From contig CAZWUB010000001.1 in NCBI GenBank assembly GCA_964637415.1, positions 566 to 64,565 on the forward strand: 64,000 nucleotides of DNA. Reading direction: 5' to 3'. The translations under genes were made by a program, and so were the position numbers. This DNA comes from an uncultured Rikenellaceae bacterium (lineage in GTDB: Bacteria; Bacteroidota; Bacteroidia; Bacteroidales; VadinHA17). The notes beneath the pieces are model-generated. The model was not told where the DNA came from. It worked only from the letters and a program-made list of their open reading frames with translations, and searched no databases. Below are positions 3,418 through 19,476 of this stretch, piece by piece (the stretch's first letter is position 1; each line of letters opens with the position of its first letter).

Positions 3418-3425
3418 TAAATTTG
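3418..3425 (+). promoter_or_regulatory. Candidate Bacteroidota -7 promoter element (TAnnTTTG) for the seven-gene operon
   Basis: TAAATTTG at 3418-3425 matches the Bacteroides sigma-AB -7 consensus TAnnTTTG. It lies about 37 nt upstream of the ATG at 3462 and overlaps the TTG start proposed by the ORF track, which argues for the ATG start. Confidence 0.35.
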
Positions 3426-3461
3426 CCTGTGTTATTGATTATATTTAAAAATTCAGCTCTT

Positions 3462-4769
3462 ATGATACCGCGTGTCACTTCCTGTCTTATCTCAGTTCTT
3501 ATCGCCTTTTTAATAATTTCGGGATGTAACAGCCGCAGTGCCAGAAATCCTGCAGGTTCCGCAAAACCCGGAACTGTTCAGAAGGAGGCAGAAGTAGTTG
3601 ATAAAGAAGAAGCTCCGGCTCTTGAAAAAGTAATATTCTTCATAGAGAACTCAGGCAGTATGTTTGGTTATGTAAACAGGGCCAATGAGTTCAAGAATTC
3701 ACTTGTGGGCCTTGCCTACCTTCCCGAATTTGATAAAGCATCAAAGAGCTTCTACTTCATAAACGGGAAATCCGACCAGTCAAAAAAATCAGATATCAGA
3801 ATAAACTATGTTGGAAATGATCCGGAAACCCTTAAGAATAATCTTGACCCGGTCTCATTCAATAAAGGTGATGTGAGATACAGTGATCTGAATGAGATGT
3901 TCAGGATCTCTCTCGATTCTGCAAAGGGGAACCAGGTTTCTGTCCTTGTCTCAGACTGTATATATGATGTGGGAGCTGAAAAGGATCCGCTTACATCATT
4001 GAATATCGAGATACATAAAACCCAGCAGGCTTTCCGTAACAGACTTGATAAAGAAGATATACAGACCCTTATAATTAAGGCATTATCAAAATTTGATGGT
4101 GACTATTTTTATGCATCTAAACGTGGATCAGTCAAAATATCAGATGAATACAGGCCTTTCTATATAATATTCTTTGGCAGGACGGAGTTCCTGAATGAAC
4201 TGCTTACCGAAAATAGCATTGGAAGCAAGATTGAAACTGAATTCGAAATTGCCCGTTTCTTTGTTAATGAGGAAAGAAATATCCCTTATCAGGTAGCCCC
4301 TTCCGTAAAACGTATAGGAAGTTTTAAGCTTGATTTTAAAGACAATTTACATCTGAATGATGCTGTGCCTCTCAAAGGAAAATTCCAGTTCACAATAGCA
4401 GCTGATTTCAGCTCACTTCCATTTTCTGATAACTATTATGCATCAGTTAATAATTATGAGTGTCTTTCTTCAAACTTCAGTGTGAGTGAAGTTGAAAAAA
4501 TATCAAAAAAAATACCGGGTATTGAAGGAACTCATCTGATCACGCTTTCAACAGATAAAAATCCTCTTGGGGAACTGGAGCTTGTATTGAAAAATTCAAT
4601 ACCTGAATGGATTATGGAAACTGATACTGATACTGAAGATTTAATTGACAGCAATCATACGTATGGATTCAGTTCACTTACTGATGCGATAAGCGAAGCA
4701 TACGCGTTTGAGAATAATAAGCAGGCAGGCCGGTACCCTGCTGTGTTCAGGATAAGAATATCAAATTAA
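3462..4769 (+). CDS. Lipoprotein with a vWA-like domain carrying a variant MIDAS (operon gene 1)
   Basis: Lipobox LIISGC, with Cys at 3525-3527. The motifs FFIENSGSM (3645-3659, DxSxS with E replacing D), RYSDLNEMF about 80 aa later, and VSVLVSDCIYD about 100 aa later follow vWA beta1/MIDAS spacing. Confidence 0.55.
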   Translation: MIPRVTSCLISVLIAFLIISGCNSRSARNPAGSAKPGTVQKEAEVVDKEEAPALEKVIFFIENSGSMFGYVNRANEFKNSLVGLAYLPEFDKASKSFYFINGKSDQSKKSDIRINYVGNDPETLKNNLDPVSFNKGDVRYSDLNEMFRISLDSAKGNQVSVLVSDCIYDVGAEKDPLTSLNIEIHKTQQAFRNRLDKEDIQTLIIKALSKFDGDYFYASKRGSVKISDEYRPFYIIFFGRTEFLNELLTENSIGSKIETEFEIARFFVNEERNIPYQVAPSVKRIGSFKLDFKDNLHLNDAVPLKGKFQFTIAADFSSLPFSDNYYASVNNYECLSSNFSVSEVEKISKKIPGIEGTHLITLSTDKNPLGELELVLKNSIPEWIMETDTDTEDLIDSNHTYGFSSLTDAISEAYAFENNKQAGRYPAVFRIRISN

Positions 4770-4775
4770 AATAAT

Positions 4776-5225
4776 ATGGGCAAATTCTTTGGTTCAATCT
4801 ATGATGGTATATTTAACATATATCACGAGTCATACCACGAGATCTTTCAGCATCTTTATGATAACGGAGGTTATACAAGGATGGGACTGGCATTTCTGCT
4901 GATACCTCTGACCGGATGGATCCTTTTCTATTTTCTCTGGAAATATCCTTACAGTAAAATATGGCACTGGCTGATCTGGACAGCAGTGATGGTACTCATC
5001 GTGGCGCTTGTTACAAACGGAATAGCAAATTCTGAAATATTCGGTTCAGGCAATCAGACATTGAATGATTTACTTGCCGATACAAGTACCGGTTATGCAG
5101 AATATGCCGGATCGCTGCCTGTAAAATATGTACTTACAAACAGCCTGCTTGCACTTATCCTCAGTTGCATTTATAGCCTGCTGATGAAGCAGTTCAGTAA
5201 AATTCATGTCCATTTACCATTTTAA
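4776..5225 (+). CDS. Small multi-pass inner-membrane protein, no recognisable family (operon gene 2)
   Basis: 149-aa ORF with three hydrophobic helices (LAFLLIPLTGWILFYFLW, WLIWTAVMVLIVALV, LTNSLLALILSCIYSLL). It starts 6 nt after gene 1. Confidence 0.6.
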   Translation: MGKFFGSIYDGIFNIYHESYHEIFQHLYDNGGYTRMGLAFLLIPLTGWILFYFLWKYPYSKIWHWLIWTAVMVLIVALVTNGIANSEIFGSGNQTLNDLLADTSTGYAEYAGSLPVKYVLTNSLLALILSCIYSLLMKQFSKIHVHLPF

Positions 5226-5236
5226 TTCAGGGAATC

Positions 5237-6721
5237 ATGGCAAGAAAACTATATATTTTCGCTATCGGCGGGACAGGATCAAGAGTATTGAAAGCATTAA
5301 CGATGCTTTTTGCATCGGGTGTTAAGATCGGGAATAATTTTGATACTGTTATTCCGGTAATAATCGACCCGGATACAAGTAACGGCGATCTTAATCGTAC
5401 AAAGGATATATTGCGCTTGTACCAGGAGATAAGGAACCAGGTTGACCAGCCTGATGATTTTTTCTCACAGGAGATAAGAACAATAAATGAAATGACTGTA
5501 AGCTCAGCGCTGGTAAATCCGGAATATTTTCAGTTCAAGCTTAAGGATACAGATAACAATACTTTCAACCAGTATATCGGATTTGACAGTATGAGTGACA
5601 ATATTGAGGAAAAGGACGACAAGAACTTTATAAAATCACTCTTTTCTTCACAGAATCTGAAATCCAATCTTGATGTGGGGTTTAAAGGCAATCCTAATAT
5701 GGGGTCGATAATTCTGAATCAGTTCACAAATTCGGATGACTTTAAGAAATTTGGTCAGACTTTCGGGGATGATGATGCCATCTTCATAATTAATTCAATA
5801 TTTGGCGGAACAGGGGCAGCAGGTTTTCCTTTATTGCTTAAAAACCTCAGGGGAAATAAAAGCATGCCAAGGTATGCAAAGATCAGCGTGGCTCCTGTAG
5901 GCGGAATTACATTTCTTCCATATTTCTCGCTGAACAGAAATGATGAAGTGAATGCAGAATCTTTTGAGGAGAAGGCCAAAATTGCAATAGAATATTATAA
6001 CCGGACAATAATTTCACTCAACCAGATCAATACATTATATTTCATCGGGAACAGGGGAAATACAAACCAGGAGGAATATGCTGTAGGAGGGCAGGAGCAG
6101 AGGAATAAGGCTCATTTCCTTGAACTTGCCGGTGCCCTGGCGATCCTTGATTTCTGTAAGGATGTTGATTCTCATAAATCGGGAACTCAGGTGAAGGAGT
6201 TCGGTATTGAACATGATACTCAGAATATTACATTTACAGATCTTAACATAGGTAATGCCAAACTGCTTTCGCCGCCTCTGACAAAGTTCAGGCTTTATAC
6301 AGAGTATCTCGATAAAGGATTATCAAAATCGCTCAATGTGTCGCGCTGGACAAAAAGTAATATCAGGCTGGTGAGGGGTAATAAACAATCGCTTCTGAAC
6401 AGTAATTATTTCAACAGCGCTGAATATAATACACAGATCCTGCCTTTTAATAATCACTTTACAGAATGGATCAGGGAAATGAAGGAAAACAAGCCGGTTT
6501 TCAGTCCTTTTGAGGAGATTTCTTCCGATGATGCGCTTGAACTTGTAAAGGGACAAACTCCAAAAGGAAATAAAAGCTTTAAAGCTCTCGATATTCAGAA
6601 CTGTTTGCTCACTGACAATATCTCAATCCGGAACAGGGAAAAGAAGCATACAATGCTCATCAAGATGTTTGGAAGATCAACAGAAAAGGTATTATTGAAA
6701 CGAAACCTTGTAATTCGCTGA
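5237..6721 (+). CDS. Divergent tubulin/FtsZ-superfamily GTPase-like protein (operon gene 3)
   Basis: T1-like loop IFAIGGTGSRV (5261-5281). T3-like loop GFKGNPNMGS (5678-5707; compare FtsZ GAGANPEVG). T4 tubulin-signature-like loop SIFGGTGAAGFPLL (5804-5824; compare FtsZ GGGTGTGAAPV). The three occur in the canonical order. Confidence 0.65.
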   Translation: MARKLYIFAIGGTGSRVLKALTMLFASGVKIGNNFDTVIPVIIDPDTSNGDLNRTKDILRLYQEIRNQVDQPDDFFSQEIRTINEMTVSSALVNPEYFQFKLKDTDNNTFNQYIGFDSMSDNIEEKDDKNFIKSLFSSQNLKSNLDVGFKGNPNMGSIILNQFTNSDDFKKFGQTFGDDDAIFIINSIFGGTGAAGFPLLLKNLRGNKSMPRYAKISVAPVGGITFLPYFSLNRNDEVNAESFEEKAKIAIEYYNRTIISLNQINTLYFIGNRGNTNQEEYAVGGQEQRNKAHFLELAGALAILDFCKDVDSHKSGTQVKEFGIEHDTQNITFTDLNIGNAKLLSPPLTKFRLYTEYLDKGLSKSLNVSRWTKSNIRLVRGNKQSLLNSNYFNSAEYNTQILPFNNHFTEWIREMKENKPVFSPFEEISSDDALELVKGQTPKGNKSFKALDIQNCLLTDNISIRNREKKHTMLIKMFGRSTEKVLLKRNLVIR

Positions 6722-6724
6722 ACT

Positions 6725-9700
6725 ATGTCTAAAGTATTCAGAATACATGAGGGACAGGATGGAACCGGTTGGTTCATCAGTAATCCCATTTCAAAAAATC
6801 AGCTCCGGACTGTCAAAACAGAAGGGAAGGATGTTGCTACCTCTATCCCCAGTCCGTTTGCAAGGATCGATCTGGTAAAATCAGCGTTTCGTTGGGTGGC
6901 AGATAATGGTATAAAAGGGACGACTGCCCAGCATAAGCTGGTATCGGATGCACTTGATGTGGCTCAGCTGTTTTTCCTTTACCCGAAGTATAAAGATAAA
7001 TACAGGATCATTTCATGGAAACCGGCTGACCGGTTCTTATCACTTGCCGCTGACTCAAACTCAAAGCATTCCAAGCTTTCTGAAACACTTCAGGTCTATT
7101 GGTCCCAGGATGCGGGCGTATATAATTTCGATAAGGTTAAAAGACTTTATTTTATCCTGAATAATTCAAATCAGATCATAGGAGGGACCTCTCCGGCGAC
7201 ATTGTTCTTTTCCGCACCCGATGCAAAAGAAGCAGCATCAGGCCTTAATATAACATGCGGACATGATGTCCTGTTCGATAATGTGTACACCGGTCTGTCG
7301 GAACGCGATGATAAGTCATTTATCGAATACTTATTCCTTTTATCCAGGCAGCCACATTTTCCCGATCTCTTCCCGGAAGTCTATTCATATATGGCTGAGG
7401 TATTTAATTGTCTGGATACTGAATTGCAGTCAAAGATAGCCTCCCTTGATCCATCTGAACTTGATAGTTATTCTCCCTGTCCGGTGCTTGATAATGAGAT
7501 GAATACATGTGAAGTGCTTGGTATAAAACTTGGTGTCAGGCTTGGTAATCCTGCAGAAATTCAAAAGGAAAGCGATTTTATTCTTAAACCCGGATTGCCT
7601 GTCAAGGGATTTGTGCCGCTGGTCCTGCCAAATGACAGATTTACACATAATTGGGCATACACGTCCGGAAATGTTCTGTGGGATCCGAATAATAAGGTCC
7701 CTTACAGGAATGAGAAATTTTACGGTGCATCGAAACTGCCTGTCCAGGGTGATAATTATCCCTGGCTGACTGCCGGTAATTTCTTTGAAGACAAAATAAT
7801 TGAATTACCCTATACTATCGACGGCAAGAAATTTTCCACCTGCGGGTCGACGAGACATTTTCTTCCTCTTACACCCTTATTCTTTGAGTATTTCAGGTCG
7901 GAAGATGTATCGCAGTACCTGCAGCTTACAACTCTGGCCGGGGGAGGAGTGGAGGCTAAGCTTGTTATCCCTGTGAAAGGAGGAGATGTGGTTCTCAAAA
8001 AATCCTGGCACCGCGAAGATATTATTCCAATGGAAATGCATCTGTCAATATTGCCGTTTATTCATGCCCCGGCTGCTGATCTGGATTATACAATAGGGAT
8101 ACAGGATAAGAGATTCAGCAGGGAAAGGGAATTGTCTGTTGAGTGTTATGAATCGGGGAAGCGCATCATTACAGGTAATCCGGTAATCAGGAAACAGGGG
8201 GATGGCAAAACAATTAAAAGTATCTGTTATAAAACAAAATCTTTTGATGCGATAAGGATAGGAAGCGATCCGGTAAACGGATTTATTGTTCCCATGATGT
8301 ACAGGAGTCAGCCTAACCAGCAGGTTTCATTTGCAATTGATTTTGGTACCACAAACACCCATATAGAGTATAAATATGGTGTAAATGCCGAAAACACACT
8401 CGACGTTTCATCTGACAAACCAATGTGGCAATCCCTTATAGACAGAACGAGGGGTGAAACAAAAGAAATAGCCGATGATAATAACTATGAACGGGAGCTG
8501 TTCCCCTATGAGTTCAGTCCATTTTCGAAGTATAAATTCCCTTTCAGGACTGCCCTGACATATAATCAGGACATCAGCTTCATAGAACCTGTCGATGTCT
8601 TTTCCCATACAAATAATTTCTTCCTTTTTGAAAAAATACTGAACCCGACATATCTTCAGTTGCAGACGAAGCTTAAATGGAGCAATTATTCAATGCCTGA
8701 GGATAAGATACTGGTGGAAAGTTTTATAGAGGGCTTAATATACATGGTCCTGTATAAGACATTGCTTCTTAACGGCGATCCACGGAAAACAAGAATAACC
8801 TGGTTTTATCCGGTCAGCATGGATGCATTCGAACAGGGTATATTCTTTGAGGTTTGGCAAAAAGCCTATAAGAAAATTTTCAGGGCAGACGGGACAAATA
8901 ATGTAAGGGCAGTGCCTGAAAGTACAGCCCCATATCTTTTTTACCGGACGGAATATCCCGGATTAAGTCTTTCAATAGATATAGGAGGCGGCTCCTCAGA
9001 TATTGCAGTGTTTAAAAATGCCAGCAATTCGCCGGAGTTCATTTCTTCTGTCAAATTTGCCGGAAATGCCATTTTCGGTGACGGCTTTCCGTACGGGGCC
9101 TTTGCCAATTCTTCGGATAATAATGGTTTCGTTAAAGTATACAGGAACAGAATAGAAAATGCAATAAATCAGAGTACACAGAGGTGGGAAATACTTACTG
9201 ATATTCTCAATAAAAGAAAGGACTCGGCTGATTTCAGCAGTTTCTTATTTTCACTCGAGAATGAGAAAGATCTTATATTCAGTTATACCGATTACCTTAA
9301 GCAGGACAGGAAGCTGAAGCTTCCTATACTCTTGTTTTATGGTGCAATAATTTATTATTCCGCAAATCTTCTAATGAAACAGGGGATGAAGGAAGTACCT
9401 CAGAATATACTTTTCAGCGGAACAGCTTCAAAAACTATCAGGATAATTGATACCAAGCCCGGGAATCCAAATATAACCGATCTTTTCAGGTATTTCTTTA
9501 AGAGGATAAATGGTATTGATAAATCACAGATAAGGATAGCCTTGTCGGAAAATCCAAAGGAAATTACATGCAGAGGGGCCCTGAAAGCTGATATGAACGA
9601 AGATCTGGTCAACTGTCCCATTGTGTTCTGGATCGGAGGAAATGATAATTCAGTATGGAGCAAAGCACTGGATAAGAATTCTGATATAGCTATAACGCCT

Positions 9701-10006
9701 TATTACAGGGATCTGGATCGCGATGGGAATAAATCTCTCATAGAAGGTTCAGTGAATCATTTCTTCAATCTGATGGATGAATACTTCATGTCAGTCAATC
9801 TTGAAGCAAATTTCGGGATCGACAATTCGGCCTGGCTGAAATTTAAGGAGATGCGGTCATTAAACATAACTGATTTCCTTGAACAGGGTCTGCAGGCATT
9901 TTATAAATCAGAATCAAAACATATCGAGGAAGCTTTATTCTTTTATCCCCTGATAGGTATTCTGAATAAGCTTGCTTTTGAACTGGCAAATACTCCTGAT
10001 AAATGA
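6725..10006 (+). CDS. 1093-aa protein with an uncharacterised N-terminal half and a C-terminal Hsp70/actin-fold (ASKHA) ATPase-like domain (operon gene 4)
   Basis: Phosphate-1 motif AIDFGTTNTH (8333-8362). Phosphate-2 motif SIDIGGGSSDIAV (8972-9010). Adenosine-like motif ILFSGTASKT (9407-9436), followed by EITCRGALKA. The spacings of about 213 and 145 aa are close to those in DnaK. The ATG lies 3 nt after the gene 3 stop. Confidence 0.6.
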   Translation: MSKVFRIHEGQDGTGWFISNPISKNQLRTVKTEGKDVATSIPSPFARIDLVKSAFRWVADNGIKGTTAQHKLVSDALDVAQLFFLYPKYKDKYRIISWKPADRFLSLAADSNSKHSKLSETLQVYWSQDAGVYNFDKVKRLYFILNNSNQIIGGTSPATLFFSAPDAKEAASGLNITCGHDVLFDNVYTGLSERDDKSFIEYLFLLSRQPHFPDLFPEVYSYMAEVFNCLDTELQSKIASLDPSELDSYSPCPVLDNEMNTCEVLGIKLGVRLGNPAEIQKESDFILKPGLPVKGFVPLVLPNDRFTHNWAYTSGNVLWDPNNKVPYRNEKFYGASKLPVQGDNYPWLTAGNFFEDKIIELPYTIDGKKFSTCGSTRHFLPLTPLFFEYFRSEDVSQYLQLTTLAGGGVEAKLVIPVKGGDVVLKKSWHREDIIPMEMHLSILPFIHAPAADLDYTIGIQDKRFSRERELSVECYESGKRIITGNPVIRKQGDGKTIKSICYKTKSFDAIRIGSDPVNGFIVPMMYRSQPNQQVSFAIDFGTTNTHIEYKYGVNAENTLDVSSDKPMWQSLIDRTRGETKEIADDNNYERELFPYEFSPFSKYKFPFRTALTYNQDISFIEPVDVFSHTNNFFLFEKILNPTYLQLQTKLKWSNYSMPEDKILVESFIEGLIYMVLYKTLLLNGDPRKTRITWFYPVSMDAFEQGIFFEVWQKAYKKIFRADGTNNVRAVPESTAPYLFYRTEYPGLSLSIDIGGGSSDIAVFKNASNSPEFISSVKFAGNAIFGDGFPYGAFANSSDNNGFVKVYRNRIENAINQSTQRWEILTDILNKRKDSADFSSFLFSLENEKDLIFSYTDYLKQDRKLKLPILLFYGAIIYYSANLLMKQGMKEVPQNILFSGTASKTIRIIDTKPGNPNITDLFRYFFKRINGIDKSQIRIALSENPKEITCRGALKADMNEDLVNCPIVFWIGGNDNSVWSKALDKNSDIAITPYYRDLDRDGNKSLIEGSVNHFFNLMDEYFMSVNLEANFGIDNSAWLKFKEMRSLNITDFLEQGLQAFYKSESKHIEEALFFYPLIGILNKLAFELANTPDK

Positions 10007-10779
10007 GAATACCAGTGTTTTTTGGCTTTAATGCCCTGATCCTTCTGACATGGATCTGGGGCTTATCGGGTTTCCTGATGGGTCTTCTTGTGGGTTGCCT
10101 TGCAGTTTTTCTGTATTCCCGGTATAGCATTTATAGTATACTTGATACTGAAAAGAAGAAATACCTGAAGGATCTGGAGAAAGATACAAGGAATAACCCT
10201 TTTCACAGAGAAGTATTTAAATATATAGGTATAGTGGAGATTTTAAAGAAAAGGAAAAATCTTAAACAGGACCAGCTTATTGCCAAGAATAATACAATAG
10301 CCGAATTAATGGTGCAGAATGAGGAATTATTCGATGATATTGAACAATTAAGGAAAAGACTGATCAACCTGAAGATGAACAAGGAGAATCAGGCTTCGGC
10401 CAGTGAAGGATCTTATGTCAGGTCTCATGAACCGGCAGTAAAAGCTGAAAATCCGGCGGATATCTTTTTTACTATTCCGGAAAGCGATGGTAGTTTCAGG
10501 ATAATTAATGCACAGCATACAAAAGGTGTTGACTGTTTTTATAAAATTATCCCTGACAGGAGTGAGCAGAAAGGCGTCCTTCAGTATTTATCGGGCGATT
10601 ATGATTTACGGGCCCTGGAAAATATTGATTATTATTTAAATCCTGTTTGTGAGATACAGAATATTTCAGGCAGGACATTCGCGAAAAGAATAGTAATGAC
10701 TGAATCCGGAAGTGTGATCAGGAGAAATGATACCTGGCAGATTGAAGAAAATGGAAAAGTAAAAGTAAAACTTGTTTGA
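10003..10779 (+). CDS. Membrane-anchored coiled-coil protein with a small C-terminal beta-rich domain (operon gene 5)
   Basis: N-terminal hydrophobic hairpin (VFFGFNALILLTWIWGLSGFLMGLLVGCLAVFLY), then a heptad-like stretch (IAELMVQNEELFDDIEQLRKRLINLKM). The start overlaps the gene 4 stop as ATGA. Confidence 0.55.
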   Translation: MRIPVFFGFNALILLTWIWGLSGFLMGLLVGCLAVFLYSRYSIYSILDTEKKKYLKDLEKDTRNNPFHREVFKYIGIVEILKKRKNLKQDQLIAKNNTIAELMVQNEELFDDIEQLRKRLINLKMNKENQASASEGSYVRSHEPAVKAENPADIFFTIPESDGSFRIINAQHTKGVDCFYKIIPDRSEQKGVLQYLSGDYDLRALENIDYYLNPVCEIQNISGRTFAKRIVMTESGSVIRRNDTWQIEENGKVKVKLV

Positions 10780-12440
10780 TAATGGTCCTTCTTCAGATAG
10801 TCACTGACACATTAAACACTTCTCAGACAGCTGTTCAGTCTGTTAATCCGTGGTTTGTGGCTGAAATTATCCTTATTATCAGCGTCATAATCTGGCAGCT
10901 CTTACTTTCAGGGAAAATCTATCTGAAAATAAAACAGTTGAAGGAAATATTCACATATCCTTTAAAGGTCAGAAGCGGATATATTAAAAAGAAATACCTT
11001 AACAGGAAAGATACTGCAGTAGATGATATTGTATTTATCAGCGATGAGGAAAGCGTAAAAGAGCAAAGCAGTCAGAACGATGATGATTCTGTCAAAATAG
11101 CAATAACTGAAGCCTATGGCTCAGAAACAATTCTGAGGATAAGAGATTATATAAATACCTATCTTCTTAATAATTACGGAGCTGCGGTCAATTTCAGCAT
11201 AATAAAAGATTTCATCGACCGTGAAGCGGACCTTAAAGATGAAGAAATTTCCAATTCATTGCCCACTCCCTTATATTTAGGTCTTGCTTCCACAATGATC
11301 GGTATTATCTGCGGGTTGTTTGCAATGCCTGCCCTGGGCGGAGGACAGTTTTCACAAGGCATAGATGCCCTGATAAATGGTGTCAAGCTGGCAATGCTGG
11401 GAAGCTTAACAGGTCTCTTATGTACCACAATCCTGACTTCATTTCTTTATAAGAAGGCAAGAAAGTCGTTGCTTGAAGATAAGAATAAACAGATATCCTA
11501 TCTGCAGGCCTGGTTGCTTCCCGAACTTATAAAAGCTGAAGATACAGGAGTGTCGGGACTAAAAGCAAGTCTCGACAGGTTTGCAAGGCTTGCCGGCGGT
11601 ATTTCTGACAATATCCTCAAAGCCTCAGATCAGACGGGCCATAATATCCTGTTGCAACAGGATGTGATCAGACAGGTGGGAGATCTGGATATCCTGAAAA
11701 TCTCAGAAGCAAACCTTGACCTGTTCAGGAGGCTTGAGGAGAATATGGCTTCATTCGGGAAATTCTCTGAATATATTTCACTGATGAGTCAGATCTCAGA
11801 CAACCTTAAGGAATTTGCAGGCCGGACCAGGAATATAGATCAGATAGTTAATCAGATAGACCTCTCGCTTAAAGATAATGCCCGTTTATTACAGTTCCTT
11901 ACATCCCATTTTGAAAAGATTGAACAGGCAGGACTGAATTCCCTGAAGGCTGTGGATATGGCCGACCTTAGTTTCGCTGATGCGATTGATAAGCTTGAAA
12001 AGGAAATAAGTAACAGGCAGAAGGTTCTGAATAATGCTGCTGCAGATGCTGACGGACATGCCAGAGAGGCAATCGGAACTTTACACGAAGAAGTGGATAA
12101 AAGGATTGCCTTGTTGAATAAAAGTGTGGATGATGCCTTTCCAAGGTTTAACCACCTTGATCAGCTTGAACGTCTTCAGGGTATACAGGAGGCCATTTCA
12201 TCAGGCAATGAAGGCATAAATACCCTGATAATGGCTGTTAATAATCTTAATAGTTCTCTTTCAAACAACAGTATTCTGCACAAGCTCGATTCGATTGAAG
12301 ATCATTTGAGTAAAAGAAGGACCAGACCGGAACAGTCTTCGGTTAAGCCGGAACCCGATGTAAAGAACCGGATAATAAGGATCTGGACCAGAGTCCAGAA
12401 ACAGGTAAAGCCTTACTTCAGGATAAGAAAGCGGAAATAA
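10776..12440 (+). CDS. MotA/TolQ/ExbB-family channel-like protein with a long helical cytoplasmic tail, ZorA-like architecture (operon gene 6)
   Basis: One N-terminal TM helix. The TM pair at 11262-11450 (PLYLGLASTMIGIICGLF ... GIDALINGVKLAMLGSLTGLLCTTILTSFLY) resembles the conserved MotA/ExbB helices. A charged helical tail of about 330 aa follows and ends in the basic stretch RIIRIWTRVQKQVKPYFRIRKRK. The start is either TTG at 10776 (overlap TTGA) or ATG at 10782. Confidence 0.6.
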   Translation: MIMVLLQIVTDTLNTSQTAVQSVNPWFVAEIILIISVIIWQLLLSGKIYLKIKQLKEIFTYPLKVRSGYIKKKYLNRKDTAVDDIVFISDEESVKEQSSQNDDDSVKIAITEAYGSETILRIRDYINTYLLNNYGAAVNFSIIKDFIDREADLKDEEISNSLPTPLYLGLASTMIGIICGLFAMPALGGGQFSQGIDALINGVKLAMLGSLTGLLCTTILTSFLYKKARKSLLEDKNKQISYLQAWLLPELIKAEDTGVSGLKASLDRFARLAGGISDNILKASDQTGHNILLQQDVIRQVGDLDILKISEANLDLFRRLEENMASFGKFSEYISLMSQISDNLKEFAGRTRNIDQIVNQIDLSLKDNARLLQFLTSHFEKIEQAGLNSLKAVDMADLSFADAIDKLEKEISNRQKVLNNAAADADGHAREAIGTLHEEVDKRIALLNKSVDDAFPRFNHLDQLERLQGIQEAISSGNEGINTLIMAVNNLNSSLSNNSILHKLDSIEDHLSKRRTRPEQSSVKPEPDVKNRIIRIWTRVQKQVKPYFRIRKRK

Positions 12441-12442
12441 TC

Positions 12443-13111
12443 ATGAAGAAGAATAATATTTTCTGGATTGGTTATTCTGATTTAATGACAAGCATGTTCT
12501 TCATAATGCTTGTTCTTTTTGTGGTGGCTATCGGATACCTGCTTGTAAAAAATGATGAGAACAGTGAGCTGATCGGTGAGCTGACTGTAAGGGAACAGGG
12601 TCTTATTCAGGAAACCGAAAGGCTCCAGAAGCTTCTGAATCTTGAAGAACAATTTGAGCCACTGATCAGCGACAGCAGCTTTTATTACCTTCCTGACTGT
12701 AAGAAATTCATTGTAAAAGACCTTATGGGGATAGAGATATTTGATCCCAACCAGGTGAAGATCAAGAGAGAGTATATTCAGCGTACGATAGCGGTGGGGA
12801 AGAAAATAGACCGCTTTCTTGCTGATTTAAGCCGCAGTAATAAGGGTTTTTCATATCTGCTTGTCATTGAAGGTAATATGGCCAATGATTATCGTCATTC
12901 AAAACCGCCCGACAGGCCGGATTTTTATATCAGAAGCTATTCAAGAGCTCTTGCTGTATATAACCTCTGGCTAAGTGAAGGAATCAATTTCAGGAAATAT
13001 GATGTTGAAGTGATGATCTGTGGCAGCGGTCTTAACGGTCTGTGCCGCGATCCTGTCGAAGAGAACAATAAACGGTTCTCAATTCAGATAATTCCTAAAG
13101 TTTCGAAATAA
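12443..13111 (+). CDS. MotB/ZorB-like protein with a single TM helix carrying the conserved Asp and a C-terminal OmpA-like domain (operon gene 7)
   Basis: N-terminus IFWIGYSDLMTSMFFIMLVLFVV matches the MotB W..YADxMT pattern, with Asp13 at 12479-12481. The C-terminus has an OmpA_C-like pattern (LLVIEGNMAND ... RSYSRALAVYNLWL ... ICGSGLNG ... NNKRFSIQI). It starts 2 nt after gene 6. Confidence 0.7.
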   Translation: MKKNNIFWIGYSDLMTSMFFIMLVLFVVAIGYLLVKNDENSELIGELTVREQGLIQETERLQKLLNLEEQFEPLISDSSFYYLPDCKKFIVKDLMGIEIFDPNQVKIKREYIQRTIAVGKKIDRFLADLSRSNKGFSYLLVIEGNMANDYRHSKPPDRPDFYIRSYSRALAVYNLWLSEGINFRKYDVEVMICGSGLNGLCRDPVEENNKRFSIQIIPKVSK

Positions 13112-14640: not shown

Positions 14641-15153
14641 TTATGTTTCTATAAAAAATTCATCAAGTGTATTATATGGGAGGATACTGCCTTTCGATTT
14701 TACTTTATAAATAAAAAAATCACATTCCTCTTTGCTGAGTAATCCCTGTCTGTAACCTTCTGCAAGGAAATCCATTGTTGTATAATATTTTATGTTGTAT
14801 TTTTTACAATATTCCAAAATATCATGAATATTACTGCTCCCGATAATGTCTTTATGATACCTGCAGTAGGCGAGACATGCACTTTCTCCTTTTCCGAATT
14901 GTTTTACAAGCCTGGCAAATTCCTTAATAACTTCATTGTCATCGTCAAAGGTAATTTCTTTGAAAAGTCTGAAATTAATCAGATTTTCATAGTATTGCCT
15001 GAGACTTTTTCTTTTTTCAAGCTCATCAAGTACTACATCCAGAATTACTTTCTCTTCTTTGAAGATTTTTGGGAGCAAAAATATTGAATCACCTTTGCAA
15101 AAGTGAATTATAACATCAGCATCAAGCAGTATTTTGCAGTCACTTTTCCTCAT
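14641..15153 (-). CDS. PIN-like (DUF4411-type?) putative nuclease; third gene of the XRE/ImmA module
   Basis: 170 aa. N-terminal ILLDADVIIHF, then LDELE, GESACLAYC and SSNIHD give an acidic-residue pattern like a PIN fold. It overlaps the ImmA gene by 14 nt. Low GC. Confidence 0.4.
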   Translation of the reverse strand: MRKSDCKILLDADVIIHFCKGDSIFLLPKIFKEEKVILDVVLDELEKRKSLRQYYENLINFRLFKEITFDDDNEVIKEFARLVKQFGKGESACLAYCRYHKDIIGSSNIHDILEYCKKYNIKYYTTMDFLAEGYRQGLLSKEECDFFIYKVKSKGSILPYNTLDEFFIET

Positions 15154-15847
15154 ATGAAAAAGCGTCCATTAATTCTGCAAAATGTGCTTCGGATATTTTA
15201 CCTTTTTCGTAAAGATTATTTGCCAGTATTCCGTAATCGCTGATCATGAATCCATAATTGGCAGGAAGATACAAGGATGTATCGAATCCAAGGCGTTTGG
15301 CAGTAGAAGTTACATCACTTATGCCGGACTCAATGAAATCAGTATTGATAAGACCAAAATCCCTTAATCTGAAAAGCATTGCCTGATGTGAAACCCTGAA
15401 TAACTGTTCTGCCTTAAGGATTGTTCCAAAGGATACTTTATTGATCCCAACCTCTTCAGGTGGGATTATTTCGAGTATTCCTGTCTCCGGCATTAGCAGA
15501 TTTGCAGAAAAAAGATCTGCATGATATTCAGCTGTGGCCTTTTTATTAAAAGCACCGGTATTGCAGATATGGGTTTCAAAATTATCCTGTATAAACAGAT
15601 GATATAGTTCATGACCAATTGTGAAGTTCTGTCTCCCGAGGGAGTGATTGCTGTTAATCAGTATAAATTTCTCACGGCCCGTTTTAATTGCCATGCCTGA
15701 AAAGAATTCTGATAATGGTCTGAAAAGCGTAAGAATATTTAGTTTAAGCAACAGACTATGAGTGTTTATAGGTTCAGATTGTGTTAGTCCCGCTTTATCT
15801 CTGAATCCTGCAACAGCTTTTTTGATGATTATTTCGCTTCTATTCAC
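15140..15847 (-). CDS. ImmA/IrrE-family (COG2856) zinc metallopeptidase
   Basis: 235 aa with the HExxH motif IGHELYHLF (15599-15613). It overlaps the XRE gene by 8 nt, which is the classic XRE plus ImmA arrangement. Confidence 0.75.
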   Translation of the reverse strand: MNRSEIIIKKAVAGFRDKAGLTQSEPINTHSLLLKLNILTLFRPLSEFFSGMAIKTGREKFILINSNHSLGRQNFTIGHELYHLFIQDNFETHICNTGAFNKKATAEYHADLFSANLLMPETGILEIIPPEEVGINKVSFGTILKAEQLFRVSHQAMLFRLRDFGLINTDFIESGISDVTSTAKRLGFDTSLYLPANYGFMISDYGILANNLYEKGKISEAHFAELMDAFSYEEK

Positions 15848-16166
15848 CCGACAGAGCTTTTAATTTAAGATAATTCCTTATTATTTGTTTGAATGCAGCC
15901 ACCTGGATAAGGTCTTCATCGGAAGAATTAATCGATCTGAAAGAGGTAAACAATCTCATCTCTTCGGGATTTTCTTCCAGAAGCTGTTCGATTTCAACAT
16001 TAAAAAGATTTGCGAACAGCTCAAGGAATTTTACCGGAACTGGTCTGGTTCCGTTTTCGTAGTAGCTTATAGATTCCCTAGAGATACCGGTAACCAGAGA
16101 AACCTGTTCTTGTGTCAATTCTTGTTTTTCCCTTAAAGATTTGATATTCTTGCCTATAACTAACAT
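15840..16166 (-). CDS. XRE-family helix-turn-helix transcriptional regulator
   Basis: 108 aa. IKSLREKQELTQEQVSLVTGISRESISYYENG is a canonical Cro/C1-type HTH. Confidence 0.85.
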   Translation of the reverse strand: MLVIGKNIKSLREKQELTQEQVSLVTGISRESISYYENGTRPVPVKFLELFANLFNVEIEQLLEENPEEMRLFTSFRSINSSDEDLIQVAAFKQIIRNYLKLKALSGE

Positions 16167-16233: not shown

Positions 16234-16357
16234 TTTCAATATTTATGAAAGAAAATTTGGACCTGGGCAGTAGATTAATGCTACAATTATTATCAAGTGT
16301 TAAACTGGTAGTGTTTAAGTATATTTGCAATTATTTAATTTCTTAATTGTTTTATCA

Positions 16358-18631
16358 ATGGGAATCCGTGTTTTTAAATGCAAAAGAATCATTTCAATAT
16401 TTCTGTTATCCCTGTTATTTACTGCTTTTACAGATACTAATGCACAAACCGTTGGGCTCGGTAAACCCGGATTTCGTGTCCGTTCCGGCTTTGATGCAAC
16501 ACTAAACAGTGACGAAGGATGGGCTGGCGATCTGAATGAGAACGTTACCGTTTATGCTGACCGGCCTTTCCGCATCCGGTTTGAACTGGAGCAATCTTCC
16601 GGTCAGGCTGCCGGATTGCAGTTCCGGCTTCAATACCGGCGAAATAAAGGTGCCTGGACCTATGCCGAAACGCATGATTTTCCTCATCCTGAACGTGATA
16701 TCAGCATAGATTTTATTGAACTTGAAGCAGGAAAGAGACCTGAGGGATGGAATGTCGTTAAGGGCAATCCCTCCGGACTTGTCATTGCGACAAATAGCAA
16801 CCAGAATGTGTTGCGGGTCAAATCGGATCAGGAACCACTTGCCGGACTCTTTACACCGCCCTGGGAGGCTACAGAAATTGAATCTCAATTCCAGCTGGCT
16901 CCTGACAATCAGAACGGGATAGCCTTCGTTGTGGGCTATAAAGACATCAGGAACTACTGTCTGGTACAACTTGATCCCACACCGGGTACTATACGTGTGA
17001 TCCGGATTATTGACGGGATAGAAAAAGTTGTAGCAGAGAGGAACACAGTGATCCCTTCCGGTCAATGGCTCGAAATCGCAATTCAGACAGAAAACCGGAC
17101 AATAGAAATAAATTTTCAGGATGATATGCTCGAAATGGAAACTGAGCTTGAAACTGTTATCCCCAACTCAAAGTCGGGATTTCAGGTACCGCCGAACAGT
17201 GTAGTCGATTTCCGTGAGTTCTCATTCCAGGGCGAAGCCAGAACTCCGCGGGTCAGCATAGTCAGCTGCCCGGCTTACCCGAACGGTATGCCTGCCAACA
17301 ACCTGTTGAAAGGTTCAACCAAACCTTTTCAGCCAGGTATGGGGATAAATTTCGCTGAAGCTACACCTGTGCTTAGTGGCACGAATGTTCACAGCGAGTT
17401 CGAATGGCCGGTTGTAATTCGCAGGTTTGCTGATGAGGCTGTTACAAATAATGAAGGTGACATATTCGAGTTCAGGATGACCGACGATAAAGGAACACTT
17501 AAGTCAAATGAAAACAATCCGGCACTCCGCCTGTCCGTTCCCCCCGGACATGTTGGCGGGACATTCATAGAAAACCCGGGGCGGATAGGACCCTGGCAGG
17601 CCTCCAACGGAGATCTTTACTTCATGATGGAACCGGCTGAAACGGAAAATGTGTTCATGATGATAAAATCGACCGACAACGGGCGAACATGGAACGAAGT
17701 GGATGGAGAAAACCGACCAGAGACAAACGATCTTGAATCGGTAGACTCCCGGCTGACCGGTAACACAATTCATATTATACACCAGGTAACCCGATCGACT
17801 GTTTATCATACTTTCCGGACCTCTGATCATCCAACCCACCCCGATACCTGGGCAATACGGGATGAATTAGCCGGAGCCGTAAATGCCGTTGCACAGACAG
17901 CGTCGTTTGCAATACGATCAGACGGCAGTATCGTCGCGTTTTATCTTGGAACTGAAAAAATACATTACAGTATACGATCACCTGAAGGTATCTGGAGCCA
18001 GGTGAAGACAATTGATCCCGGTCTTCCGCCCAATCAGGCCGGGCCACAGGCAGTAGTCGGTGAAAACGACATTATCCATCTGGCTTATTACGGAACGGAT
18101 GGAACAATCTGGTATCGACGGCTTCTTCCTGACGGGTCTCTTACTGAAAGGCAGTTGCTGGCATCAGGTGCCGGGACATCACGGGCTGAATATGGAGCAG
18201 TACTTCCGCTTCTCTTTAATCCCCAGAGGAATGAGCTTGTAATTATTTACCGGCTCTCAACAGGAAACCTGTGGGAACGAAGGATCGTAAATAACGGACC
18301 TCCTTCAGAACCGGTCATGATAACAAATTCAAAGGTGATCACCGACGCTGTCGACTCACAGCAGGCCGGTGCTGATGCTTTCATCGACGGGGAGACCGTA
18401 CATGTGCTTTTCATCGATGAATCTTCACGTAGCATCTTCAGCACTGATGATGATGGCGGCTGGAAACCTGCGAAGCTCCGGGTCAATAATATAAACGGAT
18501 CGTGGGTCCGCGGAAGCATTTACACCCGCAAAGATGGTAAAAGAGTATATGGATACATTTATGATGCCGGCTCCGATGGTGGTTCAGGTATGAACCGGTG
18601 CGGTGAGATGGTTCTGAACAGCAAGCGTTAA
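16358..18631 (+). CDS. Secreted protein with a BNR/Asp-box (sialidase-like beta-propeller) region and an N-terminal lectin/LamG-like domain
   Basis: The track ORF starts at TTG 16325. I prefer the ATG at 16358 (MGIRVFKCKRIISIFLLSLLFTAFTDTNAQ, a signal peptide). There is one canonical Asp-box, STDNGRTW. GC is visibly higher than the flanks. Confidence 0.45.
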   Translation: MGIRVFKCKRIISIFLLSLLFTAFTDTNAQTVGLGKPGFRVRSGFDATLNSDEGWAGDLNENVTVYADRPFRIRFELEQSSGQAAGLQFRLQYRRNKGAWTYAETHDFPHPERDISIDFIELEAGKRPEGWNVVKGNPSGLVIATNSNQNVLRVKSDQEPLAGLFTPPWEATEIESQFQLAPDNQNGIAFVVGYKDIRNYCLVQLDPTPGTIRVIRIIDGIEKVVAERNTVIPSGQWLEIAIQTENRTIEINFQDDMLEMETELETVIPNSKSGFQVPPNSVVDFREFSFQGEARTPRVSIVSCPAYPNGMPANNLLKGSTKPFQPGMGINFAEATPVLSGTNVHSEFEWPVVIRRFADEAVTNNEGDIFEFRMTDDKGTLKSNENNPALRLSVPPGHVGGTFIENPGRIGPWQASNGDLYFMMEPAETENVFMMIKSTDNGRTWNEVDGENRPETNDLESVDSRLTGNTIHIIHQVTRSTVYHTFRTSDHPTHPDTWAIRDELAGAVNAVAQTASFAIRSDGSIVAFYLGTEKIHYSIRSPEGIWSQVKTIDPGLPPNQAGPQAVVGENDIIHLAYYGTDGTIWYRRLLPDGSLTERQLLASGAGTSRAEYGAVLPLLFNPQRNELVIIYRLSTGNLWERRIVNNGPPSEPVMITNSKVITDAVDSQQAGADAFIDGETVHVLFIDESSRSIFSTDDDGGWKPAKLRVNNINGSWVRGSIYTRKDGKRVYGYIYDAGSDGGSGMNRCGEMVLNSKR

Positions 18632-19247: not shown

Positions 19248-19388
19248 GCATTCCGGATTACGCCTTTATTCGCTGTGCTCATAAGGATTTTTCATTTTCA
19301 TAATTCCTCTCTCAGGTAAACCTGGTTCGGAATTCTGAAAATGAAAAATCCCGTCAGCCTGCCGGCTGACGGGCGTAATCCGGAATGC
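19248..19388. repeat. Nested imperfect palindrome of about 140 nt abutting the 3' end of tRNA-Ser
   Basis: The outer 17-nt inverted repeat is perfect: gcattccggattacgcc (19248-19264) against ggcgtaatccggaatgc (19372-19388). The inner 23-nt inverted repeat matches at 22 of 23 positions: 19285-19307 against 19329-19351. Confidence 0.8.
19341..19374 (-). terminator. Rho-independent terminator of tRNA-Ser
   Basis: On the minus strand the sequence is GCCCGTCAGCC-GGCA-GGCTGACGGG followed by ATTTTTCATTTTC. Confidence 0.6.
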
Positions 19389-19476
19389 GGAGAGAGGGGG
19401 ATTCGAACCCCCGGTCCCGCGGATGCAGGACAACGGTTTTCGAGACCGCCGCATTCGACCACTCTGCCATCTCTCC
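19388..19476 (-). tRNA. tRNA-Ser (anticodon CGA), class II with a long variable arm
   Basis: The minus strand reads GGAGAGATGGCAGAGTGGTCGAATGCGGCGGTCTCGAAAACCGTTGTCCTGCATCCGCGGGACCGGGGGTTCGAATCCCCCTCTCTCCG. The acceptor stem is GGAGAGA/TCTCTCC, the anticodon loop is CT-CGA-AA, and the T-loop is GGTTCGAATCC. No CCA is encoded. Confidence 0.9.

Follow-up and report, generated by a model that had tools for sequence, protein, structure and literature searches.

A Bacteroidota gene cassette that combines a ZorAB-like motor pair with tubulin-like and actin/Hsp70-fold proteins: a possible envelope conflict system

The window analysed here (the whole stretch of 64,000 nucleotides from contig CAZWUB010000001.1, assembly GCA_964637415.1, of an uncultured Rikenellaceae bacterium) contains a cassette of seven same-strand genes, denoted g1 to g7. 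In this cassette, a pair of membrane proteins closest to ZorA and ZorB of the Zorya systems, which were described in 2018, is encoded together with a tubulin/FtsZ-like GTPase (g3), a giant protein with a predicted ATPase domain of the ASKHA (actin/Hsp70) fold (g4), a vWA-like lipoprotein (g1) and two further membrane proteins (g2 and g5). The reading that we favor, tentatively and with slightly less than even confidence, is that the cassette is an ion-motive-force-powered, Zorya-like envelope conflict system, most likely directed against phages or mobile elements and composed of two separable modules. The context evidence leans toward such a role in conflict or defence and is not decisive.

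All seven open reading frames (ORFs) are located on the plus strand. The first, g1 (3462-4769, ATG start), encodes a predicted vWA-fold lipoprotein of 435 aa; g2 (4776-5225), a membrane protein of 149 aa with three transmembrane (TM) segments; g3 (5237-6721), the tubulin/FtsZ-superfamily protein of 494 aa; g4 (6725-10006), a cytoplasmic protein of 1093 aa, the C-terminal half of which is the predicted ASKHA domain; g5 (10003-10779), a protein of 258 aa with a TM anchor, a coiled-coil region and a conserved domain at the C-terminus; g6 (10776-12440, TTG start), the ZorA-like member of the MotA/ExbB family, 554 aa; and g7 (12443-13111), the ZorB/MotB-like protein of 222 aa. An earlier note, made from the DNA alone, described this tightly spaced, co-oriented arrangement, and an ORF scan reproduces it, with consecutive junctions of 6, 11, 3, -4 (ATGA), -4 (TTGA) and 2 nt. 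The listed ORF of g1 opens at an upstream TTG (3423), which is a less likely start than the ATG at 3462. The promoter-like element reported in the upstream gap is found as well: TAAATTTG (3418-3425, plus strand) fits, by pattern match, the Bacteroidota -7 motif TAnnTTTG, is the sole match to this motif in the 121-nt gap 3' of the preceding gene, and lies 37 nt before the ATG of g1. The G+C content of the cassette is 0.399, compared to 0.422 in the rest of the window. The domain assignments of the note, which had been read from motifs, are upheld for all seven proteins by profile searches or structure models.

The order g1–g7 is retained in about 60 loci from four Bacteroidota orders, down to 37% identity in g3, as established by tblastn, ORF clustering and hidden Markov model (HMM) searches, so that the co-conservation for which a neighbourhood check had been proposed is indeed observed. 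Among the 62 loci with room downstream, g5 is present in 61, and g6 together with g7 in 58; wherever a locus extends far enough to reveal it, g3 is followed by, or fused with, a g4-type ASKHA protein. The flanking genes are common only to the window and its three nearest relatives. Because the same order recurs in about 60 loci while the flanks vary, the seven-gene set is conserved beyond chance. The closest genome is an uncultured Bacteroidales metagenome-assembled genome (MAG; L042), with 98% identity in g3. A scan of 185,579 species-representative genomes (one per species) yields 389 matches, nearly all in Bacteroidota, in the orders Bacteroidales, Marinilabiliales, Flavobacteriales, Cytophagales and Chitinophagales, and most of these copies are chromosomal. 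Overall, the distribution of the cassette looks accessory.

The g6 protein contains TM segments at aa 27-45, 166-184 and 205-223, with invariant T173 and T217, followed by a helical cytoplasmic tail of about 330 aa with a basic C-terminus. A profile search against the PDB matches the tail to helical bundles and the TM core to 8vvn_C (type I ZorA, 5.6e-4) and 8qyk_A (ZorA, 2.8e-3); among the PADLOC models, g6 identifies ZorA2 with E=2.4e-8 over aa 118-373. The g7 protein carries the motif FWxxYSDLMT, with an invariant Asp13, in its single TM segment, followed by a linker helix and, C-terminally, by an OmpA-like peptidoglycan-binding domain with conserved E143-G144, R168-A169 and N209. The best match of the g7 profile, over the full length, is 8vvn_B, the type I ZorB of Shewanella (E=2.4e-13), followed by E. 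coli ZorB (8qyd_F, 3.3e-8) and then by MotB and OmpA-family chains; the PADLOC match is to ZorB1 (E=4e-7). The entry 8VVN is the structure of the Shewanella type I Zorya system, according to PMC11890865. The Zorya-like channel and TM-aspartate protein proposed from motifs are thus recovered with ZorA and ZorB as their best PDB relatives, and by sequence comparison g6 and g7 appear closest to this pair, not to the flagellar, Tol or Ton stators. Identity with a flagellar, Tol, Ton or GldLM stator is ruled out given that the best relatives are ZorAB and that no partner genes are present: in agreement with what had been noted from the sequence, the Pfam, NCBIfam and PADLOC scans detect no flagellar, Tol/Ton, GldLM or ZorC/D/E partners.

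The extremity of the g6 tail varies between cassettes. In the window and its close relatives, the tail ends in the basic stretch RIIRIWTRVQKQVKPYFRIRKRK; in more distant cassettes (L043, L048, L050, L054, L058, L069, L073, L079 and L080), it ends in a hydrophobic, TM-like helix, so that in these the tip of the ZorA-like tail may return to the membrane, unlike that of the described ZorA. Six loci have a gene for a polytopic membrane protein of 160 aa between g6 and g7 (e.g., L014 9890-10390).

The g3 protein contains the T1 (GIGGTGSR), T3-like (GFKGNPN) and T4 (GGTGAAG) motifs, all of which are invariant in the family, including the loop residues G11-G-T-G-S-R16 and G190-G-T-G-A-A-G196. The match of the window protein to the Pfam profile Tubulin (PF00091) covers model positions 5-149 of 190 with E=1.4e-3 and 19.4 bits, against a cut-off of 33. 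Of 36 diverse family members, 31 match PF00091 at E<=0.01 (best 7.7e-7) and 26 match PF13809 (best 2.1e-7). A g3 profile search against the PDB retrieves CetZ and FtsZ, with the T4 loop only, and an hhalign comparison of the family with E. coli FtsZ (an approximate sequence) aligns only the T3-T4 stretch, with a probability of 0.6. The presence of a tubulin/FtsZ-superfamily GTPase domain in g3 is accepted here as a prediction from these motifs and profiles, and the family is distinct from FtsZl1, FtsZl2, TubZ and CetZ. Its members are 460-515 aa long and numerous: clustering at 90% leaves over 2,300 homologues, and clustering at 50% identity gives 1,778 clusters (E<=1e-3); those that bear a source name are all annotated as “hypothetical protein”, and identity to g3 is 62-97% within the best 120 homologues. 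Neither the Pfam nor the PDB searches, which did not include a dedicated coiled-coil predictor, indicate a coiled coil in g3. The PADLOC match of g3 to PDC-M02B (E=1.1e-3), which is not mentioned in the Payne et al. preprint, is rejected as spurious since it covers 40 aa outside the G-motifs.

The C-terminal portion of g4, about 560 aa, is similar in its AlphaFold2 (AF2) model (pLDDT, the predicted local distance difference test score, of 85; pTM, the predicted template modelling score, of 0.74) to the nucleotide-binding domain (NBD) of Hsp70, MreB, ParM and BeeR (Foldseek against the PDB, E of about 5e-9, probability 1.0). The phosphate-1 (D539-x-G-T-T-N), phosphate-2 (D752-x-G-G-G-S-x-D) and adenosine (G899-T900) motifs are all intact, and D539/G541/T542, D752/G754-G756/D759 and G899 are invariant columns of the family alignment. 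The library matches of the window protein, to FtsA, MreB and BeeR, are all below threshold. Those of the family members are to ASKHA families, save for a few found in single members: FtsA is matched by 13 of 20 members, followed by Ppx-GppA, EutA, MutL and MreB. The g4 profile finds motif-level similarity only in the PDB, with aa ~755-837 aligned to Hsc70, and there is no match to the Hsp70 family PF00012, so that g4 is not assigned to the Hsp70/DnaK family proper. On the strength of the model and the motifs, the C-terminal half of g4 is a predicted ASKHA (actin/Hsp70-fold) ATPase domain. The N-terminal ~530 aa form a large extra region without a fold assignment.

In some genomes, g3 and g4 form a single ORF of about 1,550 aa (L026 3185-7873, L027 5862-10553 and L028 3677-6001; fusion proteins P0121, P0122, P0321, P0323 and P0327). 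Because the two are fused in some genomes, g3 and g4 can be expected to act as physical partners and probably function in one complex. Few stretches of g4 are as conserved as its N-terminal tip (aa 1-45, window positions 6725-6860), yet this tip is modelled with pLDDT <50; the conserved residues of the N-terminal region are R6, H8, G15-W16-F17, S40-I-P-x-P44 and D49-L50. In the fusion proteins, the tip comes directly after the C-terminus of g3. It looks like a partner-binding peptide. Two proteins of about 1,655 aa, P0348 and P0352, consist of g4 plus some 550 further residues.

For g1, the family alignments show an invariant lipobox cysteine (Cys22) and conserved ENSGSM and SDxIY motifs. Sequence methods fail to detect a vWA domain, whether by Pfam searches with the window protein and 20 family members, by comparison of the profile with the PDB, or by an hhalign comparison with an integrin I domain (an approximate sequence); the assignment is made because of the AF2 model (pLDDT 86.4) and its Foldseek matches. 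The model consists of an N-terminal vWA domain (aa ~55-245) followed by a beta-rich C-terminal domain. Its best PDB match is Rpn10 (E=2.8e-4, probability 0.99), and the other top matches, namely the Sec23/24 trunk, TFIIH p44, Ku, ANTXR2, the Bat-type protein 4jdu from B. fragilis and integrin I domains, are likewise mostly vWA domains or vWA-containing proteins. A motif resembling the metal-ion-dependent adhesion site (MIDAS), E62-x-S64-x-S66 ... D165, is present. E62-N-S64-G-S66 and D165 are invariant among the closer homologues, and in a set of 20 distant ones, S64 and D165 are invariant and E62 and S66 are at least 90% conserved, position 62 being D in 2 of the 20. Judging from the model, g1 is thus a putative vWA-like lipoprotein with a MIDAS-like ExSxS...D motif.

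The remaining two proteins are less readily classified. By hydropathy, g2 contains hydrophobic segments at positions 36-54, 66-84 and 114-132; homologues occupy the same place in 79 loci, and the Pfam, NCBIfam and PADLOC scans identify no family for it. The g5 protein consists of one or more N-terminal hydrophobic segments, a coiled coil and, at the C-terminus, a conserved domain of about 110 aa (hydropathy and alignment), with invariant P159, F165, G191, C216, G236, W245 and K252; Pfam searches give no informative match, and comparison of the profile with the PDB yields TM and coiled-coil noise alone. In some cassettes (L003 14768-16057, L014 6837-8165, L033 14714-16066 and L048 11800-13008), an additional region of about 200 aa, with a signal-like hydrophobic start of its own, precedes the TM segment, and g5 of these lineages may include a periplasmic domain as well.

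The cassette is composed of two separable modules. The g1–g5 module occurs without g6 and g7, as g1-, g3-, g4- and g5-like genes only, on cyanobacterial plasmids (L081/L083 and L084), in Prevotella sp. oral taxon 299 (L082) and in an Azobacteroides MAG (L077). The plasmid of L081/L083 is Cy782204 of Gloeothece verrucosa, which is mobilizable and carries ParA/ParB; L084 is a plasmid of Picosynechococcus PCC 8807, in which a TM2-domain protein follows the stator-less module. On the cyanobacterial plasmids, the g3 homologue bears the RefSeq annotation “tubulin-like doman-containing protein” [sic].

Conversely, genes of the g6/g7 subfamily occur without g1–g5. In Parabacteroides distasonis (L085, NZ_OY725823, 10511-14633), ZorA-like and ZorB-like genes of this subfamily are preceded by genes for DarT (Pfam 4.5e-30, PADLOC 3.6e-14; with an N-terminal coiled coil) and for a DUF6939/NADAR-like protein, and an integrase gene adjoins the locus. 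Among 26 metagenome g6/g7 loci with enough upstream sequence, the g1–g5 module is present in 19 and absent from 7, and 6 of these 7 (L135, L140, L151, L153, L156 and L160) contain the DarT and DUF6939/NADAR-like pair instead. This four-gene set has the appearance of a Zorya-like type not described so far, the effector of which would be a DNA ADP-ribosyltransferase; a search of the literature, with most subscription journals outside its reach, found no paper that links DarT with ZorAB. Given that g6 and g7 are also paired with DarT, they can be considered a swappable module. The pattern is that of a portable sensor or energiser which, by analogy with the Zorya types, would be combined with alternative effector sets.

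A further layer is formed by accessory genes. In 37 of the 57 loci with room, at least one co-oriented gene after g7, rarely before g1, encodes a hydrolase with a lipoprotein signal. These hydrolases are trypsin-like in 25 loci, SNase in 8, retropepsin-like in 7, and EEP nuclease and transglutaminase-like in 6 each; some are fused to each other, e.g., to an SNase domain. The unrelated hydrolase families share an N-terminal leader, the lipobox C-x-x-C-S-x-S-G-R (L014 11000-11812, L015 19073-20272, L009 18463-19497, L046 18457-19197, L061 18356-18913 and others), and this shared motif may act as a signal, specific to the system, for tethering or sorting. The N-terminal leader of g1, C-x-x-(C)-x-x-R-S-x-R, resembles it.

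Eight IMG/VR sequences match the cassette and resemble integrase-flanked cargo, not phage structural regions. In three of these (L168, L169 and L171), the full cassette and accompanying trypsin-like and SNase genes are enclosed by integrase-like genes, one preceding g1 by ~330 nt and the other lying ~2.5 kb past g7; this arrangement suggests that here the cassette is cargo of an integrative element of gut Bacteroidales. No match is found among 50,697 phage records, and, with the IMG/VR copies looking like cargo, a phage origin of the cassette is ruled out.

From the folds, motifs, synteny, fusions, modularity and accessory genes described above, the following scheme of a conflict system can be envisaged. 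Module A (g6 and g7) would be a ZorAB-type inner-membrane motor, presumably of 5:2 stoichiometry, in which g7 is predicted to anchor to peptidoglycan through its OmpA-like domain and Asp13 to serve as the ion acceptor. Module B (g1–g5) would span the inner membrane, with periplasmic g1, the 3-TM protein g2, membrane-anchored g5 and the cytoplasmic NTPase pair g3/g4. By analogy with Zorya, an envelope disturbance might cause g7 to engage the cell wall and ion flow to open, whereupon the tail of g6 would relay the signal to a g5/g4/g3 assembly, which could consume GTP and ATP in building or reshaping a structure attached to the membrane at the site. The proteins g1 and g2, together with the optional hydrolases, would form a periplasmic arm; the hydrolases would be deployed in about two thirds of the related cassettes and not in the window. 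A more specific version, in which Zorya-like immunity has a cytoskeletal effector arm, such that the motor switches the g3/g4 machine to remodel or seal the membrane and the vWA lipoprotein deploys proteases and nucleases, is rather unlikely on the present evidence.

The conflict reading draws its support from the ZorAB-like pair, the reuse of this module with DarT, the separate occurrence of module B, the accessory distribution, the attached hydrolases, the fusions of g3 with g4 and the invariant GTPase and ATPase motifs. The neighbourhoods add to this: a capH/capP-like pair lies near the cassette in the window, and the non-cassette ORFs closest to the cassette in about 45 diverse loci, 128 in number, include 5 integrases, type I and type II restriction-modification systems, GmrSD (2), DrmD, AbiEi, NsnA (2), mad2 (2) and several PDC candidates; the enrichment of the flanks in defence and mobile-element genes is suggestive only, these being counts without a matched control set. 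Several observations weigh against it. The window lacks accessory hydrolase genes, its flanks consist mostly of metabolic genes, and periplasmic hydrolases with a shared leader suit a delivery machine equally well. The NCBIfam scores are far from the curated cut-offs, at 17.6 bits (E=1.4e-3) against 250 for g6 with ZorA_3 and 19.8 bits against 400 for g7 with ZorB1. No known Zorya effector is present, and g1–g5 have no accepted PADLOC match. Because module B works without a stator in some lineages, the stator may be an energiser and not a sensor, and the formation of a polymer by g3 and g4 belongs to the conjectural part of the scheme.

Many of the same observations bear on a different function, the main rival, that of a machine for membrane remodelling (e.g., vesicle formation) or for deployment of lipoprotein cargo, driven through g6/g7 by the proton-motive force (PMF). 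Either the motor and the cytoskeletal-type NTPases g3/g4 would reshape the inner membrane or envelope, or they would power the release or positioning of the leader-bearing hydrolases as cargo held by g1. A common C-x-x-C-S-x-S-G-R leader on unrelated hydrolases is what a cargo signal would look like, module B exists without the stator, and the cassette parallels the architecture of the FtsZl1 operons, for which remodelling was proposed (PMC2875224); furthermore, related 5:2 motors drive type 9 secretion, gliding and Ton uptake, according to PMC11890865. Nevertheless, the hydrolases are missing from one third of the cassettes, the window included, no membrane-bending domain is detected, the reuse of the stator subfamily with a DarT toxin module is a conflict context, and the distribution is patchy and linked to mobile genetic elements. 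The leader also has no acidic surface-export signal, which Bacteroidota surface lipoproteins typically carry. Taken together, this makes the remodelling or cargo function possible and, on the whole, unlikely; it is not fully exclusive with defence.

An accessory role in the cytoskeleton or in envelope maintenance, i.e., in cell shape, at the division site, in Tol-Pal-like tethering of the outer membrane, or in motility or adhesion, appears improbable. It would account for the predicted tubulin and ASKHA folds, for a peptidoglycan-binding stator as in Tol-Pal or MotAB, and for the strong sequence conservation seen in the best 120 homologues of g3. It fits poorly with the occurrence in few and scattered Bacteroidota species, with genomic surroundings that vary, with the copies on plasmids and integrase-flanked elements, and with the closer relationship of g6 and g7 to ZorAB than to TolQR or MotAB; moreover, library scans and the window neighbours reveal no division, gliding, type 9 secretion or Tol partner genes nearby. 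A maintenance or partition module, in which TubZ-type and ParM/Alp-type NTPases would segregate or stabilise a carrier element, is brought to mind by the distant versions on cyanobacterial plasmids, the integrases flanking some cassettes and the presence of ParM among the Foldseek matches of g4, and is very improbable considering that no centromere-binding adaptor or repeat locus is seen, five of the seven genes encode membrane or periplasmic proteins, most copies are chromosomal, g4, with its 1093 aa and large extra domain, is unlike segregation actins, and the Gloeothece plasmid has its own ParA/ParB.

In the window, the genes upstream of the cassette are metabolic, and a convergent gene for a BamB/PQQ-like propeller abuts g7. 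At 1.5-3 kb downstream of the cassette (14641-16166, minus strand), there is a capH/capP-like pair with a PDC-S70-like gene. An HTH_3 protein (15840-16166, minus strand) is the capH-like member of the pair, the adjacent M78/ImmA peptidase (15140-15847, minus strand) matches PADLOC CapP with 5.8e-25, and the next gene, of 170 aa, weakly matches PDC-S70 (6.2e-5); these genes, 1.5 kb away from the cassette, may together form a small defence locus. Beyond these genes lies a divergent ORF of 768 aa (16325-18631, plus strand) without a family match and, beyond it, a tRNA-Ser gene (19387-19476, minus strand). Among the related loci, a small membrane protein of the DUF6804 family (Pfam E=3e-32) is encoded beside the cassette in six (L015 7927-8226, L043 19938-20243, L050 19273-19596, L054 18507-18821, L070 and L079), none of which is among the six with the 160-aa protein between g6 and g7.

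The cassette ties the puzzle of the tubulin-like operons noticed in 2010 to Zorya, for which structures and a working model of the ZorAB motor exist. If its role is in defence, the cassette would be the first such system with prokaryotic tubulin and actin-fold proteins as immune effectors, and Zorya-type sensing would extend to Bacteroidota, including gut Bacteroidales, in which few defence systems have been studied. Should immunity with a cytoskeletal effector arm prove true, a function would be assigned to FtsZl1-type tubulin operons across bacteria and archaea. If the cassette is not involved in defence, it would still represent an unrecognised PMF-coupled cytoskeletal machine in hundreds of species.

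Among the known relatives of the individual proteins, g3 shares the T1, T3 and T4 nucleotide-binding loops with FtsZ, TubZ, CetZ and PhuZ, and g4 shares the ASKHA fold and the phosphate-1, phosphate-2 and adenosine motifs with MreB, FtsA, ParM and the Hsp70 NBD; nevertheless, both are below the curated threshold of every one of these families, and, unlike Hsp70, g4 has no substrate-binding domain and does have the ~530-aa N-terminal region. The DarTG and DarT-NADAR modules sit directly upstream of g6/g7-family genes, in the place that is taken here by g1–g5; they consist of entirely different proteins and show only that g6 and g7 are portable and can be associated with conflict effectors.

Hu et al. 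2024 (PMC11946911) and Mariano et al. 2025 (PMC11890865) present Zorya types I-III, all with a ZorAB core. The similarity to the cassette is confined to this core: like ZorA, g6 combines a MotA/ExbB-family core with a long C-terminal helical tail, and like ZorB, g7 has a single TM segment with a conserved Asp and a periplasmic peptidoglycan-binding domain. The ZorAB-type core is modular and is combined with different partner genes. The differences are that g6 and g7 do not reach the curated NCBIfam cut-offs for ZorA and ZorB, that the partners in the cassette are cytoskeletal-type NTPases and periplasmic proteins, not DNA-targeting enzymes, and that a hydrophobic helix forms the end of g6 in some distant homologues. 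The PADLOC check proposed earlier returns ZorA2 and ZorB1 as the best defence-model matches and no ZorC–G; in the PADLOC and NCBIfam searches, none of g1–g5 matches ZorC and ZorD (type I), ZorE (type II) or ZorF and ZorG (type III), and the window neighbours are unrelated to these. The cassette is therefore outside any described Zorya type. In the literature searched, which leaves out most subscription journals, no paper was found to connect tubulin-like or Hsp70-like proteins with ZorAB, nor one in which the cassette is described.

The closest precedent for the gene combination is provided by the FtsZl1 operons, predicted to encode a membrane-remodelling or vesicle-biogenesis system (Makarova & Koonin 2010, Biol Direct 5:33, PMC2875224), and the reference to this work in the earlier note is right in substance. 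Additional file 5 of that paper lists vWA-FtsZl1-'B7'-MotB (COG1360) operons in cyanobacteria, an operon hyp-hyp-FtsZl1-MotA/TolQ/ExbB-OmpA in Deinococcus, and vWA-FtsZl1-vWA-vWA-DnaK-like in Magnetospirillum, where the giant DnaK-like protein is amb2961; the stator-containing examples are Ava_1847-1850, Cyan8802_4287-4290 and DR_0540-0535. The note's further statement that the cassette corresponds to no named system holds to the extent that it fits neither a Zorya type nor FtsZl1; the combination of stator, tubulin and vWA is less unprecedented than the note implies, having already been tabulated in 2010, without a connection between the MotA/MotB-like pair and Zorya being made in that paper. 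No functional study of FtsZl1 was found in the literature searched.

Both systems combine a divergent tubulin/FtsZ GTPase with a vWA protein and small membrane proteins and, in some lineages of FtsZl1, with MotA-like and MotB/OmpA-like proteins, and the T1 and T4 loops of g3 are of the GGGTG(S/T)G type of GTPase loop. In Deinococcus deserti, the MotA-like protein of the FtsZl1 locus scores 31 bits with the g6 HMM, and the OmpA protein has the same FSDLM Asp motif. The tubulin-like proteins themselves differ: FtsZl1 proteins are ~900-1200 aa long, with a coiled coil and a helical C-terminal domain, compared with the 494 aa of g3. The cassette has a 1093-aa ASKHA protein, separate or fused, and no protein kinase or P-loop GTPase. 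The Bacteroidota g3 family is not in the 2010 list, in which the B. caccae entry is a 913-aa protein beside a cysteine protease. The identity of g3 with FtsZl1 is ruled out given that g3 scores 14.8 bits with Tubulin_2 (PF13809), below the cut-off of 27, and that the g3 HMM gives -2.4 bits with the FtsZl1 protein of D. deserti. Thus, the cassette shares its architecture with the FtsZl1 operons and is built around a different tubulin-like family, one that is short and coupled to an ASKHA giant.

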